Source of the DNA: Escherichia phage vB_EcoM-RPN187
Length of the DNA: 64,000 bases
Reading direction: 5' to 3' (one strand)
Sequence record: OL770074.2
Of this stretch, positions 3,601-39,460 are shown piece by piece. The translations under genes were made by a program, and so were the position numbers. Position 1 is the stretch's first letter. Each line of letters begins with the position of its first letter. The notes below the pieces were generated by a model. It worked only from the letters and a program-made list of their open reading frames with translations. It was not told where the DNA came from and did not search any database.

Positions 3601-3612
3601 ATTATTTCTCTC

Positions 3613-3813
3613 TTATTCGTAGAAGTCGGTAACTGTCCATGCGGAATTGCGATTAGACATTATTTTATTATACTCATCTTTAAAAGCAGATTTGAGCATT
3701 TGTTCAGTAACAATATGTTCTTCACCTGAAAACGTATTGGTCAAAACATATTTTTTAATTTCAGGGACAACGAGAAGATGTTGGCCAGTTGAATACTCCA
3801 TGTTGTTCTCCAT
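3613..3813 (-). CDS. hypothetical protein (66 aa), 45.2 position
   Basis: Small ORF packed between rpbA-like and gene 46 on the coding strand. Confidence 0.4.
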   Translation of the reverse strand: MENNMEYSTGQHLLVVPEIKKYVLTNTFSGEEHIVTEQMLKSAFKDEYNKIMSNRNSAWTVTDFYE

Positions 3814-3855
3814 TTAATTTGATGTGGTCATTATAACCACATCGTGTTAAAGCGT

Positions 3856-5544
3856 TTATGAAACAGTCATTACCGTAAATCGTCCAACTTTGCTCATCTG
3901 AAGATGCTGTCCATACCGTTGAGGGTCATGGTCTCGATGAGAGATAATGAACACATTAGTATTTTGTAAACTTCCAAGAATGGTATCTATAGCCTTAACA
4001 GCCTCAGAATCGACAGCGCCATCAAAAACCTCATCAAGAATCAGAGTGTTGATTTTAACACCAGAGACCTTTTCAGCAATATCTCGCCATGTAAACAACA
4101 ATGCGATATCGATACGTGCCTTTTCACCTTGACTAAATGAAGCATAACTAAAATCTTCACGACCACGTGATTTTATAGATTCATTGAATTCTTCGTCAAT
4201 AGAAAACACGTAATCAGCTTCCATGATTTTAAGATAATAGTTAATCTGCTTGTTGAACAGAGGCACATATTTTTTAATGATAGCACCTTTAATACCAGAA
4301 TCTTTTAACATATCTGTGATAATACCACGATGGTATTTTTCAAGAACGATATCCGATTTTGTTTTAATGATTTTATCAAGTTCTTTTTGAAGCAAAGCTA
4401 TCTCATCGGCATGGTCGATAAATTCCGCTGAGGCTTGTTCTATTGCAGCTTTAACTTTCTTAGCTTTATCAATAGTGGCAATCATTGCTTGTTTCTTGGT
4501 ACGAATATCAGATGCAAGGTCCTGTTTAGTCTTAACATTAGCTCTATATTCGTCCACTAGGACACTCAGATTATCTCTGTGACATGTAAGTTGCTCGAAT
4601 GAGTGATTACATTCGTGAAGCTTATCGGTAATCTTAGAGACAATAGGATCACCCTGGTGCAACTGTGATGCACAAGTAGGACATGTGCCGCCGTCATGAT
4701 ACATCTTAATAACTTTGTTATATGAGTCAATTTTAGATTTAATCAAGAATGCTTCTTGTCCTATCTTGTTGAATGCCTCAGTAGGGTCTTCATCAAGAAC
4801 GATATTAAGTAGTCGCTCATTAGCTTCTTCGATTTCTGCTTTTAATGAACGAGCTTCTTTGGCTAGGTCGTCATACATATTCTGTAGACGCGCTACATTA
4901 TCACCAGATAATTTCTTTTGACGTTCGATATTCTCGTTATAAATCTTAATTTGTTGGATAACACCATCTTTCTTGGCATCGAGAACTTGTCCCTGGGAAT
5001 TAAGTTCTCGAACTTGAGACTTATTGATTTTATCCATTTCAGCGAGTGTGCCGACTTCTAAAAGGTCTTCAACAAGTTTTCTGCGAGCAGGGGTGCTAAG
5101 AGCCATGAAAGGGGTATACCCTGCCGTCCCAAGCACAACGATTTGTTTAAAAGACGCGTATGACATTCCGATGCTACGTTCAAATTCTTCTTGGAAGTCA
5201 CGACTGCTGGCAGATTCATCAAGACGAACACCGTCAACGGAGATTTCGAAAATATTGGGCTTTTGGCCACGTTTAATGAAGTATTTTTTACCATCAAATT
5301 CCATCCAAAGCTCAACTAAGAGCTCTTTCTTGTTCGTGCTATTAATGATTTGCCCTTTCTTAACATCACGAAATGGTTTACCGAAAAGTCCAAAAGTAAT
5401 GGCTTCTAACATCGTAGATTTACCACCACCATTTTTACCAGTGATTAATGTCTTTTGGACTTTATCTAATTGGATGTCAATAGGATTCCCGCCTACCGAC
5501 ATGATGTTTTGATAACGAACACGATTTAATTTAAATGATTTCAT
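3856..5544 (-). CDS. 46: recombination endonuclease subunit gp46 (Rad50/SbcC-like)
   Basis: 562 aa, Walker A GKNGGGKST near N-terminus, long coiled-coil middle, CxxC hook (CPTC), C-terminal LILDEVFDG D-loop region. Confidence 0.9.
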   Translation of the reverse strand: MKSFKLNRVRYQNIMSVGGNPIDIQLDKVQKTLITGKNGGGKSTMLEAITFGLFGKPFRDVKKGQIINSTNKKELLVELWMEFDGKKYFIKRGQKPNIFEISVDGVRLDESASSRDFQEEFERSIGMSYASFKQIVVLGTAGYTPFMALSTPARRKLVEDLLEVGTLAEMDKINKSQVRELNSQGQVLDAKKDGVIQQIKIYNENIERQKKLSGDNVARLQNMYDDLAKEARSLKAEIEEANERLLNIVLDEDPTEAFNKIGQEAFLIKSKIDSYNKVIKMYHDGGTCPTCASQLHQGDPIVSKITDKLHECNHSFEQLTCHRDNLSVLVDEYRANVKTKQDLASDIRTKKQAMIATIDKAKKVKAAIEQASAEFIDHADEIALLQKELDKIIKTKSDIVLEKYHRGIITDMLKDSGIKGAIIKKYVPLFNKQINYYLKIMEADYVFSIDEEFNESIKSRGREDFSYASFSQGEKARIDIALLFTWRDIAEKVSGVKINTLILDEVFDGAVDSEAVKAIDTILGSLQNTNVFIISHRDHDPQRYGQHLQMSKVGRFTVMTVS

Positions 5545-35658: not shown

Positions 35659-35964
35659 TTATTTTCCTCGGCATTCTTTAATGAAATTTTCTAGATTGGT
35701 AGATTCAATAGCTTTTTTACGAGCTTCTGCGTGTTCTTCTTCAGACAATTTACATTTATAATTGACCCAGGCATTATGGTCGAAACTAGTCGTGGCATAT
35801 AATAACAATGCTCCGACGAATAATAAAAACGGTGATAAGAATACAAAACCAGGAACACCATCCATATCGTAAGCCTTTTGTAATACTGCAACAGAAAGGG
35901 CCGCGTAAAAAGGTGATGCAAATATTGTTAAAAGACCAATTCGGTTGGTTTCTGTTAATTTCAT
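35659..35964 (-). CDS. hypothetical membrane protein (101 aa)
   Basis: Two TM helices; ends in ENFIKECR motif. Confidence 0.4.
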   Translation of the reverse strand: MKLTETNRIGLLTIFASPFYAALSVAVLQKAYDMDGVPGFVFLSPFLLFVGALLLYATTSFDHNAWVNYKCKLSEEEHAEARKKAIESTNLENFIKECRGK

Positions 35965-35992: not shown

Positions 35993-36022
35993 ACTATAAC
36001 ATAGTCCTATCATGTTGTAAAC
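35993..36022 (-). promoter_or_regulatory. early promoter GTTTAC-N17-TTATAGT with hairpin TAGGACTA/TAGTCCTA
   Basis: Minus strand: GTTTACAACATGATAGGACTATGTTATAGTAGTCCTA. Confidence 0.55.
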
Positions 36023-36034
36023 AGTTTTGTGAAG

Positions 36035-36991
36035 TTATTTGAAAGGTTTCACCATATGAAAATTTTCTTTAAACCGTTTGATGTAATCATTTTTGCCGAG
36101 CTTATGATACATAGCCACTACTTCATAATAGTTCTCGTATGCGTACTCACGGAACCAACCAGAGGTGATGCTTGTACAGACCTTTTCCAATGCCATCATG
36201 AAACTGGCTTCAGGGTTAATTTTAAAGTCATTAGGAATCTGAGAACGTTCTAATGCTAGTACACATGATTCTTCGTATACACCGGCCAATTTGACCATTT
36301 CTGGTAATGATTCGAACTTCTCTCGTGAGGTCATGACTTCAGAACCGTCTTTCATATAAAATGTATACGCTGGACGGTCTGTTAGCGCAATGGCTTCATG
36401 AATAGTATCATGGTCATATGTATAGATGTCATCTTTAAAGAACGCACTTTTAGAAGTGTCAAGAACTGGGTGAGCATAGTTCAAGGTTTCTTTCTGGCGT
36501 TTCAGCATAATTTCAGTAAGTTCATCGTTCAGTGTAACACCTTTACCGCGAAGATACTGAATATGGTTCATAGTCTTTAAAAAGAATGGATTATTTTTCT
36601 TGAAACGATGAGACATCTTAATTGCAAGACACATCTCAGGAGTTGCCCAGTAAAACCCGTTCAAACGGTCTTTAGTCAAATTTTTCTTGGCGTATTTTAA
36701 AAGGTCATAAGAAGACGTGAAATCTTCAGGAGTGAGTTCACCGACTAATTCACGGACATTAGTGATTGCCGGAACAATATATGCTTCAAAATGAGTTTCG
36801 CGTCCGTTATGGAAACATTTGAAAACTTGGACACCAGGGTTATCTTGATGAACGTATACACCCATCATTTGATTTTTGAATGCATTCCAAGAACCTTGGT
36901 CTGCAATAAAGTCCCAGTCACTATTTTTGATAGCGTTAGAATCAATAAGACCGTGATAGTGAAGTGCACGAGAACCAATAACTAACATCAT
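36035..36991 (-). CDS. hypothetical protein (318 aa)
   Basis: Long ORF with strong SD (CCGAGGAAAATATT-ATG); no motif recognised. Confidence 0.5.
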   Translation of the reverse strand: MMLVIGSRALHYHGLIDSNAIKNSDWDFIADQGSWNAFKNQMMGVYVHQDNPGVQVFKCFHNGRETHFEAYIVPAITNVRELVGELTPEDFTSSYDLLKYAKKNLTKDRLNGFYWATPEMCLAIKMSHRFKKNNPFFLKTMNHIQYLRGKGVTLNDELTEIMLKRQKETLNYAHPVLDTSKSAFFKDDIYTYDHDTIHEAIALTDRPAYTFYMKDGSEVMTSREKFESLPEMVKLAGVYEESCVLALERSQIPNDFKINPEASFMMALEKVCTSITSGWFREYAYENYYEVVAMYHKLGKNDYIKRFKENFHMVKPFK

Positions 36992-37019: not shown

Positions 37020-37259
37020 TTAAATTTCACGACATGCGATATCATATTCATCCCATAGGTCATCGTGTGAAGCCTCTACTAATGGAACGATTGTACCATT
37101 TATGTCTTCATTATAAGGGCAAATTGTACAGTGTGCATCTTCGAATCGGATGCCTTTGTGTTCAGATTTTTTATAACGCATATCGAATATCTTTGCAAAC
37201 TTTTCACGAGTAATGGTTTTAGCAACCACTTTGGTTCCAACACTTTCGTAATAAATCAT
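37020..37259 (-). CDS. hypothetical protein (about 79 aa)
   Basis: ATG (MIYYESVG...) preceded by GGAG; contains HCTICPYNED. Confidence 0.4.
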   Translation of the reverse strand: MIYYESVGTKVVAKTITREKFAKIFDMRYKKSEHKGIRFEDAHCTICPYNEDINGTIVPLVEASHDDLWDEYDIACREI

Positions 37260-37286
37260 TGTGGACTCCATTTAATTTGATAGGAC

Positions 37287-37316
37287 TACTATAACATAGC
37301 CCTATCTTGTTGTAAA
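37287..37316 (-). promoter_or_regulatory. early promoter GTTTAC-N17-TTATAGT with hairpin
   Basis: Minus strand: GTTTACAACAAGATAGGGCTATGTTATAGTAGTCCTATC. Confidence 0.55.
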
Positions 37317-37321
37317 CTGTT

Positions 37322-37519
37322 TTAGCAAGAATAACTAGATGATACCCAGCCTTGAACAGTAATACTATTATTTGATACCGAGATTGCATTCTGGAGATTC
37401 AAACCTGCATTATCTTCAATCCACAATGTAACTTCTTCGCGTTCTTCTGTTGCAATTTGGAACAGGTTTTCTAGGGCAGCTACTGCCGTACGTACAGCAC
37501 AATCCAATTCACGAGACAT
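37322..37519 (-). CDS. small protein with C-terminal GWVSSSYSC tail (paralogue 1 of 3)
   Basis: 65 aa; begins MSRE, ends ...VQGWVSSSYSC. Confidence 0.4.
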   Translation of the reverse strand: MSRELDCAVRTAVAALENLFQIATEEREEVTLWIEDNAGLNLQNAISVSNNSITVQGWVSSSYSC

Positions 37520-37528
37520 ATAGTTTCC

Positions 37529-37801
37529 TTAGCAAGTGTGAGAAGATGCAATCCAACCACCAGTTTCAAGGCTCAGGTTGTAGTCGTATTGGTAAACGTC
37601 AGCCCATTCAGCATAGCCGTTTTTTGTACAACGTTCAAGATCGGCTTTAAGTTGTCCGGGTGAATGATATGTTCCACCCATACCATAAGCTGGATACAAG
37701 TCGAATGTTGTGTTTTGTTTATCAGCAATTTCTTTGGCAGCCTCAATAGCTGCATAGATTTTTGCTACGGCTTCAGCCAGTTCGGTTTGTTCTTTAGACA
37801 T
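37529..37801 (-). CDS. small protein with C-terminal GGWIASSHTC tail (paralogue 2 of 3)
   Basis: 90 aa; begins MSKEQ, ends ...ETGGWIASSHTC. Confidence 0.4.
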   Translation of the reverse strand: MSKEQTELAEAVAKIYAAIEAAKEIADKQNTTFDLYPAYGMGGTYHSPGQLKADLERCTKNGYAEWADVYQYDYNLSLETGGWIASSHTC

Positions 37802-37810
37802 AATGATTCC

Positions 37811-38116
37811 TTAGCACAACGCAGAAGACGAAACCCAAGCACCTTCAGTAATAACGTAACCATTACCTTCACGCTTAACATCGCCACCATTATTTTCAAT
37901 TTCATCTTTCATCCACTGGGATACGATTTCACCCTTAGGATAATAAGTACGACCGCTACCATAATCACCTACAGAAAATGATACGGCGTATTGGTCTGCG
38001 ATCTTTGTTGCTTCTTCTTCGATACGTTCAGCTTGATTCAGAAGTTTATAAATTGCATCTGAAGCGGATTTGGCATCATTAAACTCTGGTACTTTAATTT
38101 CAATAATCTTACTCAT
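37811..38116 (-). CDS. small protein with C-terminal GAWVSSSALC tail (paralogue 3 of 3)
   Basis: 101 aa; begins MSKI, ends ...ITEGAWVSSSALC. Confidence 0.4.
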   Translation of the reverse strand: MSKIIEIKVPEFNDAKSASDAIYKLLNQAERIEEEATKIADQYAVSFSVGDYGSGRTYYPKGEIVSQWMKDEIENNGGDVKREGNGYVITEGAWVSSSALC

Positions 38117-38472
38117 TTTCTACATTCCTTAATAAAGTTTTCGATTGTTTCATTTTCACGTCTAGCTAGGAGTTCATTATAACTAATCATTTGAGAAGCG
38201 TAAACCTTTTTATTTTTCTTGTTATGGTTTATAAAATCGTAGTAAAAATAGACTACAGTACAAAATGATGCGATGGATGCAAAGGCTTGGGTATACCGTA
38301 AGTCCTGCCATTGGTCTGTGAATCCACCAGTGTTCCCTATAAATCCTAACACAACGCCGTCAATAAGAAATCCAACTAATCCAAAGGCAAATCCCATGCC
38401 AATACTCATAATAAAAATTAGAATGTTCTCACCAAGAGAAGGCCATACGGTTAAGAGTTGAGGCTTTTGCAT
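38113..38472 (-). CDS. hypothetical membrane protein (119 aa)
   Basis: Two to three TM helices; ends in ENFIKECRK. Confidence 0.4.
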   Translation of the reverse strand: MQKPQLLTVWPSLGENILIFIMSIGMGFAFGLVGFLIDGVVLGFIGNTGGFTDQWQDLRYTQAFASIASFCTVVYFYYDFINHNKKNKKVYASQMISYNELLARRENETIENFIKECRK

Positions 38473-38846
38473 CTTATTTCCTTAACGAATTCCATAGCTT
38501 CTTCATATTCGTACTTTTTAACAGCTTCATCATACTGAGCTTGGGCTTTTGCGCACTGAACTTTCCATTCTCTTAATCGGGCTCTATAATGACGTCCTTG
38601 GTGCCAATATCCTACCCAATTAATAGGCATTAATAAAAACGGTACAATAAGTGGTGCGACGAACATTAATGAAAATGCTGCATCAGACGATATAACTTCA
38701 CTAGAATCTAAAACAGCTCCTATAATCATAAAGATTAAAAATGCTAAAGCTAAAATAGGGCCAAATAGTACTTCGTTTGGGATTAATTTACGCTTGTATT
38801 CATACGCCCAGGGCTTAATTGGCATGTATAGGGTTGGCTTTGACAT
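38451..38846 (-). CDS. hypothetical membrane protein (about 131 aa)
   Basis: Internal start MSKPTLYMPI; two TM helices; tail ...MEFVKEIRCK. Confidence 0.4.
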   Translation of the reverse strand: MSKPTLYMPIKPWAYEYKRKLIPNEVLFGPILALAFLIFMIIGAVLDSSEVISSDAAFSLMFVAPLIVPFLLMPINWVGYWHQGRHYRARLREWKVQCAKAQAQYDEAVKKYEYEEAMEFVKEIRCKSLNS

Positions 38847-39411
38847 ATTCTCTACATTCCATAATAAATTGCTCAAGGATTAAATTGTTAGTGAAATTAG
38901 GACTAACAACCATGGTTTCATAAAGCGCATCAATAGCACTTAAAGCATCAACTCTTTTAAGCAAAGGCTTGCCTTCATACATAGTTTCAGAATCGACGAT
39001 TAACGTAAAGTAATATTTTTTATTATTGACCAGAACTTCTGTATCAATATAAAACATGTTAGATCTTAAAAGCTTATCTCTAAAACCATAATAATCTTCA
39101 GAGCGTTCGCTGATATATTCCAATTCAGTGTTTAAACAACAAACAGACCACGTAGGAGCAACGAAATCAGTGAATCTAATATCATGGTCTGCAACTAGTT
39201 TAGCAATAGCTCCGATATCATGAATCATAATACCTGGGGCTAATAAAGATTTTCGGTTATTTGCATATTCAGTTGTCTCATAAGAAGACGACCAGTACCA
39301 TTTACGTCCAGTTGCAACATATCGTAATGAATCAACTAAAGACGTAGGTGGATTTACCTTATTTCGGAACTCTTCGAACATTGAGTCAATATCATTATTT
39401 TGGTTTCGCAT
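38815..39411 (-). CDS. hypothetical protein (about 198 aa)
   Basis: ATG preceded by AAAGGAG; C-terminal ...EQFIMECREYV. Confidence 0.4.
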   Translation of the reverse strand: MRNQNNDIDSMFEEFRNKVNPPTSLVDSLRYVATGRKWYWSSSYETTEYANNRKSLLAPGIMIHDIGAIAKLVADHDIRFTDFVAPTWSVCCLNTELEYISERSEDYYGFRDKLLRSNMFYIDTEVLVNNKKYYFTLIVDSETMYEGKPLLKRVDALSAIDALYETMVVSPNFTNNLILEQFIMECREYVKANPIHAN

Positions 39412-39432
39412 GTTAACTCCTTTATTATCCAA

Positions 39433-39460
39433 AAGGAGGACCGGAGTCCTCCGTATTATT
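39433..39460 (-). terminator. terminator hairpin GGAGGAC-N4-GTCCTCC plus U tract
   Basis: Perfect 7-bp stem directly after the stop at 39461, followed on the minus strand by TTTTGG. Confidence 0.5.

Follow-up and report, generated by a model that had tools for sequence, protein, structure and literature searches.

Results

Three small genes share a Cys-terminal tail

Within a 64,000-nucleotide stretch of the genome of Escherichia phage vB_EcoM-RPN187 (sequence record OL770074.2; hereafter the window), we analyzed a run of three small tandem genes at positions 37,322 to 38,116 whose products end in a common tail with Cys as the last residue, together with the gene that follows them. The phage is RB69-like and T4-type and belongs to the genus Mosigvirus; the 3.5 kb surrounding the array share 99.9% identity with Escherichia phage AV112 and 96% with RB69. 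The array is flanked by e.3 and by ORF135c/134c (all RB69 names). T4 lacks the array, and there e.2 directly adjoins e.3. All three genes lie on the minus strand, which the first-pass annotation of this DNA had not given. The genes, their tails, and the gene downstream are:

37811..38116, minus strand: paralogue 1, 101 residues, MSKIIEIK...YGSGRTYYP...GAWVSSSALC; canonical member; phrog_899; RB69ORF139c+138c
37814..37837, minus strand: tail of paralogue 1, W-V-S-S-S-A-L-C, the last 8 codons before the stop
37529..37801, minus strand: paralogue 2, 90 residues, MSKEQTEL...YGMGGTYHSP...GGWIASSHTC; canonical YGMGG type; phrog_899; RB69ORF137c
37532..37555, minus strand: tail of paralogue 2, W-I-A-S-S-H-T-C
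37322..37519, minus strand: paralogue 3, 65 residues, MSRELDCAVRT...QGWVSSSYSC; divergent, lacking the YGxGG loop and keeping the tail; phrog_4882; RB69ORF136c
37325..37348, minus strand: tail of paralogue 3, W-V-S-S-S-Y-S-C
36035..36991, minus strand: partner protein, 318 residues, Pfam DUF7277 + DUF7275, RB69ORF134c; conserved downstream gene

The first-pass annotation had described three adjacent genes that begin MS[KR] and share the ending G-x-W-[VI]-[SA]-S-S-x-x-C, and this description is accurate in both its coordinates and its sequences. Pairwise identity among the paralogues is ≈30%, the W, S, S, and C of the tail are invariant in their alignment, and TAA directly follows the terminal Cys codon in all three. 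Of the 608 stop-to-stop segments in the window that are 40 residues or longer, 14 end in Cys, and these three open reading frames (ORFs) are the only ones that end in W-x-[SA]-S-S-x-x-C; the shared tail is not a matter of chance. The 101- and 90-residue proteins match phrog_899 (1.3e-22 and 1.9e-18, to the C-terminal half of the profile), and the 65-residue protein matches phrog_4882 (1.6e-36), both families being unannotated. When the 65-residue paralogue is compared with the main family, hhalign aligns a 13-residue tail and nothing else, with a probability of 92%. The UniRef label "Ig-like domain-containing protein" that some copies of this paralogue carry is unsupported and is probably an automatic false positive.

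In the RB69 reference AY303349 (5811-6117 of the retrieved stretch), the 101-residue gene is annotated as ORF139c (71 residues, ...SQWYEK) plus ORF138c. As annotated, this split implies a frameshift, and the cause could be a sequencing error or decay of the gene to a pseudogene in the laboratory strain; the gene is intact in all other Mosigvirus records listed.

Codon usage shows protein-level selection on the tail

The junctions between the genes resemble one another as well. The pattern TGCTAAGGAA-N5-ATGTC, remarked on at first pass, is present at both internal junctions, which carry the same base at 15 of 20 positions:

37797..37816, minus strand: junction of paralogues 1/2, TGC-TAA-GGAATCATT-ATG-TC, with the Cys codon, then the stop overlapped by a Shine-Dalgarno sequence, then the start of the next gene
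37515..37534, minus strand: junction of paralogues 2/3, TGC-TAA-GGAAACTAT-ATG-TC

The junction pattern TGCTAAGGAANNNNNATGTC has exactly two matches in the window (37515-37534 and 37797-37816, minus strand), with 0 expected from 100 shuffles. Agreement of this kind could point to a nucleotide-level artefact or to chance, whereby a conserved junction or noncoding ORFs produce the shared protein ending. The codons refute this explanation. Across 158 distinct gene ends of the family, each of the six Ser codons turns up at both invariant Ser positions, TGC and TGT alike encode the Cys, the stop can be any of the three, and the sequence that follows it varies. Because all six Ser codons are found at invariant Ser positions, we conclude that selection on the tail operates at the protein level. 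In addition, the last gene of the array has the tail without a junction, each paralogue has conserved orthologues in different genera, and the predicted fold is confident, so that the artefact retains a virtually negligible probability. The Shine-Dalgarno sequence TAAGGA overlaps the stop codon behind the conserved Cys codon, and since Cys codon, stop, and ribosome-binding site coincide in this way, the similarity of the junctions is a by-product.

The tail defines a large family of phage proteins

With word-based searches, each paralogue was traced to orthologues in Mosigvirus, Dhakavirus, Karamvirus, and Aeromonas phages, and all of these orthologues keep the tail. Absence of the motif from homologues in related phages had been set at first pass as the refuting outcome; the motif is present in them, and the refutation fails. 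Within the family, the tail is conserved more strongly than any other feature, also in Acinetobacter, Pseudomonas, jumbo, and metagenomic phages. A family profile built from seven long members and searched against 1.84 billion representative proteins yielded 249 proteins (clusters at 50% identity) at E ≤ 1e-3. The family is large, ancient, and nearly restricted to phage sequences, and it is defined by its tail; tandem paralogues with a conserved Cys-terminal tail, as first described in the window, are thus valid well beyond it.

We derived tail statistics from 144 listed short matches, of which 133 end in Cys and five more have one residue past the Cys. In the Cys-ending group, Trp occupies position -7 in 132 of 133 sequences, Ser position -4 in 132 and position -3 in 130; position -5 is S, A, or P, and the W-to-C distance is 7 in 132 of 133. 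The family consensus reads G-x-W-x-[SAP]-S-S-(x0-3)-C, the Ser-to-Cys distance across tails being 0, 2, or 3 residues. The Cys is the single one in the protein in 78 of the 144 listed members.

Members are typically 60 to 120 residues long. They are very acidic (mean net charge -7.4), cytoplasmic proteins that consist of an N-terminal helix (...EAE.IADE.G), the element F.F...YGMGGTY(Y)P, a variable acidic linker, and the tail. The YGxGG element, usually Y-G-M/S-G-G-T-Y-Y-P, sits in a hairpin, and the linkers often hold additional W-x-S-S(-x-C) copies. One subfamily combines an internal W-x-N-S-S-C-Y-G-E-E copy with a terminal W-x-P-S-S-C. The internal copies, along with the endings that extend one residue past the Cys, indicate that a free α-carboxylate on the Cys is not essential. 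In related loci, many ORFs that carry the tail have bodies without detectable similarity, and because such unrelated-looking bodies share it, the tail does not simply belong to a single fold.

Larger arrays than that of the window also occur. Dhakavirus phages, among them Escherichia phage vB_EcoM_ESCO10 (2492-3739 of the retrieved locus), have five tandem tail paralogues of 97, 93, 65, 70, and 74 residues, spaced mostly by 9 to 10 nt, versus the three genes of the window. An IMG/VR metagenomic phage contig (6081-9089 of the locus) encodes six paralogues with degenerate tails, ending in GWQPSAGTC, GGWYSSHC, GWKNSSSYC, GWTNSSTYC, GWEGSAC, and EWMSSSDQC, with an enzyme gene inserted between the fifth and the sixth. 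As read from these endings, the six paralogues show how much variation the tail can undergo (S to A, and shorter spacing).

The small proteins match no known family or solved fold

Neither the window proteins nor ten diverse members matched a meaningful family in Pfam, NCBIfam, or PADLOC. The 101-residue protein gave weak Pfam matches to Peptidase_S78_2 (0.007) and E217_Gp32 (0.01), which we discarded as below the cut-off and not reproduced in other members. An ESCO10 homologue labeled "inhibitor of prohead protease" does not resemble T4 Inh (227 residues, ...FVTLK); other labels on small tail ORFs of this genome, "helicase" and "group I intron endonuclease", are implausible for the size of the proteins, and this run of implausible labels suggests that the annotation is shifted. 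We found no paper on the small-protein family or on DUF7275/DUF7277.

An AlphaFold2 (AF2) model of the 101-residue protein from a seven-sequence alignment reached a mean predicted local distance difference test score (pLDDT) of 90. The model comprises a long helix, a β-hairpin with the YGSG loop, a short helix, and more strands, and its W-V-S-S segment lies in the last strand and is followed by a helical turn (W-V-S pLDDT ≈86). No match to the small proteins was found among solved-structure folds.

The confident placement of W-V-S-S in a β-strand followed by a helical turn would suit a tail with a role of its own, such as a structural cap, a Cys used for metal binding or oligomerization, a degradation or targeting signal, or a host-binding motif, in which case any linkage to an enzyme gene would reflect shared regulation or co-inheritance. 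The single Cys of 78 of the 144 members could pair between subunits, and the extra W-x-S-S(-x-C) copies in the linkers are as expected of avidity-type short motifs. What speaks against such independence is the genomic setting of the family.

The tail genes are linked to a DUF7277/DUF7275 gene

The last position of the array in the window is 37322, and the gene for the DUF7277/DUF7275 protein, referred to here as the enzyme gene, begins on the same strand at 36991. Two tests of this proximity were made, in opposite directions. In the forward test, IMG/VR loci were retrieved by a degenerate DNA pattern for YGMGGTY, giving 73 loci, 41 of them with family members, often arranged as 2 to 6 tandem genes. 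Clustering of the neighbors in these 41 loci brought out one outstanding family, present in 30 loci, which is the homologue of the 36035-36991 product. The enzyme gene lies directly downstream on the same strand in 30 of the 30 loci with enough downstream DNA; in the 11 loci without it, the DNA ends less than ≈900 bp past the last family gene.

In the reverse test, 80 loci were fetched via the enzyme, representing 20 lineages at 60% identity. Seventy-five of these have 1 to 6 tail-bearing ORFs upstream on the same strand, 73 with standard tail endings and two with the variants W-V-Q-S-S-C and W-E-S-S-E-S-S-E-C. The downstream and opposite-strand ORFs of the 80 loci, which number in the thousands and serve as an internal control, include no tail ORF, and no other neighbor is common to more than four of the 20 lineages. 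Counts of the two genes in GenBank phages, by genus, run in parallel: 259 versus 252 for Escherichia, 59 versus 59 for Aeromonas, 18 versus 18 for Shigella, and 68 versus 67 for Acinetobacter. The 185,579 bacterial and archaeal species genomes gave only six matches, all on contigs of metagenome-assembled genomes, and the module is found almost only in phages.

The tail family is therefore tied to one enzyme-like gene by a strict, oriented linkage, and we consider it very probable that the two genes are functionally coupled. The same linkage bears on the idea of an enzyme-independent tail. It extends across 20 enzyme lineages and across phages of Enterobacteria, Aeromonas, Acinetobacter, and Pseudomonas as well as jumbo and metagenomic phages, with strict order and strand; because it persists in mosaic accessory regions in which no other neighbor is conserved, co-inheritance alone is hard to credit. 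DUF7275 enzymes do occur without tail proteins, as described below, which favors independence, and on balance we regard an enzyme-independent tail as quite unlikely.

A link to tRNA or RNA repair was considered as well, since the module lies near the T4-type tRNA cluster and has Pnk or Rnl2 neighbors in a few phages. We rejected it: a tRNA is located within 4 kb in 4 of 60 loci, and no such neighbor is conserved.

The partner protein carries a nucleotidyltransferase-like motif

The partner protein matches DUF7277 with 94.4 bits (7e-27) and DUF7275 with 260.4 bits (1e-77), the gathering cut-off being 27 for each, and both domains were matched in all 24 diverse homologues that we aligned. Its N-terminal region contains the following element:

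36911..36976, minus strand: codons of G6-S7...D25-x-D27, which fit the minimal nucleotidyltransferase pattern hG[GS]-x(n)-D-h-D-h

G6, D25, and D27 are invariant in the 24 homologues, and S7 is at least 90% conserved. By inspection, an h-[ED]-h stretch follows ≈40 residues later in all 24, with an ambiguous alignment at that point for the T4-like members. The resulting layout, (β-strand)-G-S-(helix)-...-D-h-D-h followed by an h-[ED]-h strand, corresponds to the motif of the Pol-β nucleotidyltransferases (hG[GS]-x(9-20)-D-h-[DE]-h with a later third acidic residue) and suggests, from motif to fold, that the partner is nucleotidyltransferase-like. Some depositors label homologues "nucleotidyltransferase" or "putative antibiotic resistance protein".

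The DUF7275 domain is also rich in invariant residues across the 24 homologues, comprising K125, H128, R129, K139, T140, R165, H194, D195, and H198, and further E240, E241, E248, R249, K270, and R281, together with a nearly invariant Cys in the motif KVCTSITSGWFRE. H128, H194-D195, and H198 recall the HD-phosphohydrolase signature; their spacing is atypical, and no HD Pfam family was found. Among the nucleotidyltransferase Pfam families, none was assigned to the partner homologues, save for one member that matched DUF6036 at E = 0.25. As a possible relative we tried T4 NrdC.11 (NC_000866, 436-1446 of the retrieved stretch), which belongs to Pfam RlaP (4.6e-12; an RNA repair pathway Pol-β family) and is unrelated to the partner by hhalign.

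Neighboring genes and other features of the locus

Between the array and the enzyme gene, the window contains one further gene and a promoter-like site:

37020..37271, minus strand: 83-residue ORF, RB69ORF135c-like, phrog_3723; located between the array and the enzyme gene; contains CxxC
37288..37316, minus strand: promoter-like site TTTACA-17-TATAGT with a TG extension, just past the stop of the triplet; consensus match only

The 83-residue protein has H-C-x-x-C plus more His and Cys and may be a zinc-binding accessory protein. Its gene is rare, found in 3 of the 41 loci by neighbor clustering and in the Dhakavirus locus, and judging by this distribution the protein is at most an accessory part of the module. 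The promoter-like site may give the ORF135c and enzyme genes a promoter of their own, to judge from its consensus match. A near-identical second site (TTTACA-17-TATAGT, TG extension) occurs at 35993-36021 on the minus strand, just past the enzyme gene, and a strong, bidirectional terminator-like hairpin is located at 39435-39452, upstream of e.5.

A different C-terminal motif is found in the neighbors RB69ORF133c, e.3, e.4, and e.5 (35659-35964, 38113-38472, 38451-38876, and 38815-39432, respectively, all on the minus strand), which contain ...NFIKECRGK, ...NFIKECRK, ...FVKEIRCKSLNS, and ...FIMECREY.... Dhakavirus and Karamvirus homologues have the same FIKEC-type ending (FIKECKS, FIKECREY, FLKEMRK). 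This ending may be a second repeated gene-end module, on proteins that are mostly membrane proteins.

Discussion

A proposed enzyme-substrate module

We propose that the small proteins and the DUF7277/DUF7275 protein would form a two-part module in which the invariant tail is the place where the enzyme binds. Most likely, the enzyme would then modify the tail covalently, by nucleotidylylation of the Ser-Ser hydroxyls or of the Cys thiol, and the diversified bodies of the 1 to 6 paralogues may act as different payloads or address different targets in host takeover. We favor covalent modification because the invariant residues are nucleophiles, because one enzyme gene serves 1 to 6 diversified partners, and because the enzyme has a catalytic-looking motif. 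One enzyme gene per 1 to 6 small genes likewise fits a relation of an enzyme to its substrates or adaptors better than it fits a 1:1 complex. Taken as a whole, the proposal that the tail is the interface with the enzyme and that its Ser/Cys nucleophiles are modified by nucleotidyltransferase activity is a tentative one, somewhat short of probable, in which the interaction, the modification, and the role in host takeover are all inferred. The first-pass annotation had suggested that the C-terminal Cys after a Ser-rich stretch could be a modification or processing site. This suggestion has gained in plausibility, as a nucleotidyltransferase-like gene is the sole conserved neighbor; it remains conjectural, with the fold of the partner drawn from a motif.

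Several observations weigh against this proposal. The search profile contained the tail, such that tail-less relatives may be under-detected in the family counts. According to the AF2 model, part of the tail may have a structural role instead of being exposed as a free peptide. The partner has no sequence match in the PDB even at E ≤ 10, and hhalign against the sequence of ANT(6), a streptomycin adenylyltransferase, aligned the GS..DxD stretch only, at a nonsignificant E of 0.32. Single-sequence AF2 of the partner gave an unusable model (pLDDT 36). At the level of gene content, five of the 80 enzyme loci have no tail ORF, and distant DUF7275/DUF7277 proteins in KVP40, Gordonia, Streptomyces, and DSS3 phages lack a tail-bearing neighbor; because of these distant loci, the enzyme does not strictly need tail proteins.

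The enzymes of KVP40 and of the Streptomyces and Gordonia phages adjoin another small acidic family, whose members share ...EV.P[KR].V... (retrieved loci: KVP40.0036, 2360-2656; Streptomyces, 3899-4234; Gordonia, 3601-3888). This arrangement suggests that the pairing of DUF7275/DUF7277 enzymes with small acidic partners is more general.

The gene-linkage data would be explained equally by docking without modification, where the tail plugs into the enzyme and the small proteins act as regulators (antitoxin-like inhibitors) or as target adaptors. Docking accords with very variable bodies on an invariant tail, with the strongly acidic character of the small proteins opposite an enzyme that has many invariant Lys, Arg, and His residues, and with the pair logic of MenT/MenA and HepT/MntA, both of which are pairs of a nucleotidyltransferase and a small partner. 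It would be unusual, however, for an inhibitor to occur as up to six paralogues of ancient divergence beside a single enzyme gene, and the invariant Ser, Ser, and Cys are nucleophiles and, with the exception of Trp, not typical binding hot spots. The distant enzymes that have no tail partners are a further difficulty, and we judge docking alone to be rather unlikely.

A different chemistry would be cyclization like that of ribosomally synthesized and post-translationally modified peptides: a tail Ser is phosphorylated or AMPylated and converted to dehydroalanine, and the Cys adds to it to give a lanthionine-type ring, or else undergoes an oxidative decarboxylation like that which yields aminovinyl-cysteine (AviCys). 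The AviCys ring of epidermin joins Ser19 and Cys22, and the C-terminal S-x-x-C of the tail has the same spacing, a resemblance we take as a lead only. A ring could tolerate the variable Ser-Cys distance (0, 2, or 3), and the invariant K, H, and R of DUF7275 could serve phosphate binding or elimination. The likeness to the lanthipeptide/AviCys systems (EpiA/EpiD) extends to the Ser-rich stretch, the C-terminal Cys, and the tandem diversified genes beside one enzyme gene. In contrast to those systems, no LanB, LanM, LanKC, LanL, or LanD homologue was found among the RB69 neighbors, in Pfam scans, or as a conserved neighbor in the 20 lineages, and homology to lanthipeptide enzymes was not detected. 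The would-be precursors are folded proteins of 60 to 150 residues (AF2 pLDDT 90), with a conserved C-terminal site on a variable body, the reverse of a leader and core. Cyclization is accordingly very unlikely.

Comparison with known systems

Of the nucleotidyltransferase systems, GlnD/PII offers the parallel of a nucleotidyltransferase-type enzyme with an extra, mostly helical domain bearing conserved His/Asp and of a small (≈100-residue) protein partner, which in the proposed module would similarly be modified on a hydroxyl side chain. Sequence or fold homology to GlnD/PII was not detected, however, and PII is modified on a loop Tyr, whereas the proposed site here is a C-terminal Ser/Cys tail; the present module is, moreover, nearly phage-only and has several paralogous partners. 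The type VII toxin-antitoxin system HepT/MntA and the MenT/MenA pair likewise place a minimal nucleotidyltransferase gene beside a small partner gene, and in HepT/MntA the nucleotidyltransferase AMPylates its partner. Unlike HepT, the small proteins described here have no HEPN Rx4-6H motif, fold match, or PADLOC hit, and in contrast to both systems there are 1 to 6 partners per enzyme, encoded in lytic phage genomes and not in bacterial toxin-antitoxin loci.

In MccB/MccA, ThiF-ThiS, MoeB-MoaD, and TglA/TglB ("pearlin"), the extreme C-terminal residue is the reactive site for a nucleotide-using enzyme, and in TglA this residue is a C-terminal Cys. The enzymes MccB, ThiF, MoeB, and TglB are E1-like or LanB-like, not Pol-β-like, the Cys of the present tail is genetically encoded, and its α-carboxylate, unlike in those systems, seems dispensable. 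Finally, the small proteins resemble sponges and DNA mimics such as Tad1, Tad2, Acb2/Vs.4, Ocr, and Arn in their small size, in their acidity, and as accessory proteins from the early regions of large lytic phages; they show no fold similarity to the solved structures of Tad1, Tad2, Acb2, Ocr, and Arn. The module lacks the testable hallmarks of each system compared and, in our assessment, falls outside these known kinds.

Significance

The furthest-reaching possibility, which we regard as unlikely, is a new protein-modification system of large lytic phages, in which a Pol-β-like enzyme with a new C-terminal domain would either add a nucleotide to the invariant Ser-Ser...Cys tails or promote dehydration followed by Cys addition, giving a C-terminal thioether ring, and so produce modified effectors directed against the host or its defenses. 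Modification of the tail, if true, would constitute both an enzyme-substrate module and a ribosomal protein modification of a new class. If the reading is correct, the module would be widespread, spanning more than 700 deposited phage genomes and ≈250 sequence clusters, and would combine two parts without characterized relatives: a small-protein fold that has no solved counterpart and bears a nearly invariant Cys-terminal motif, and a DUF enzyme. The module is located in hyperplastic early regions, in T4-type and rV5-type phages as well as in Pseudomonas and jumbo phages, and these regions are dense in genes for host takeover and anti-defense. In many phages that are candidates for therapy, several genes now labeled "hypothetical" would then gain a function. 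Even without modification, the strict gene linkage gives DUF7277/DUF7275 a partner.

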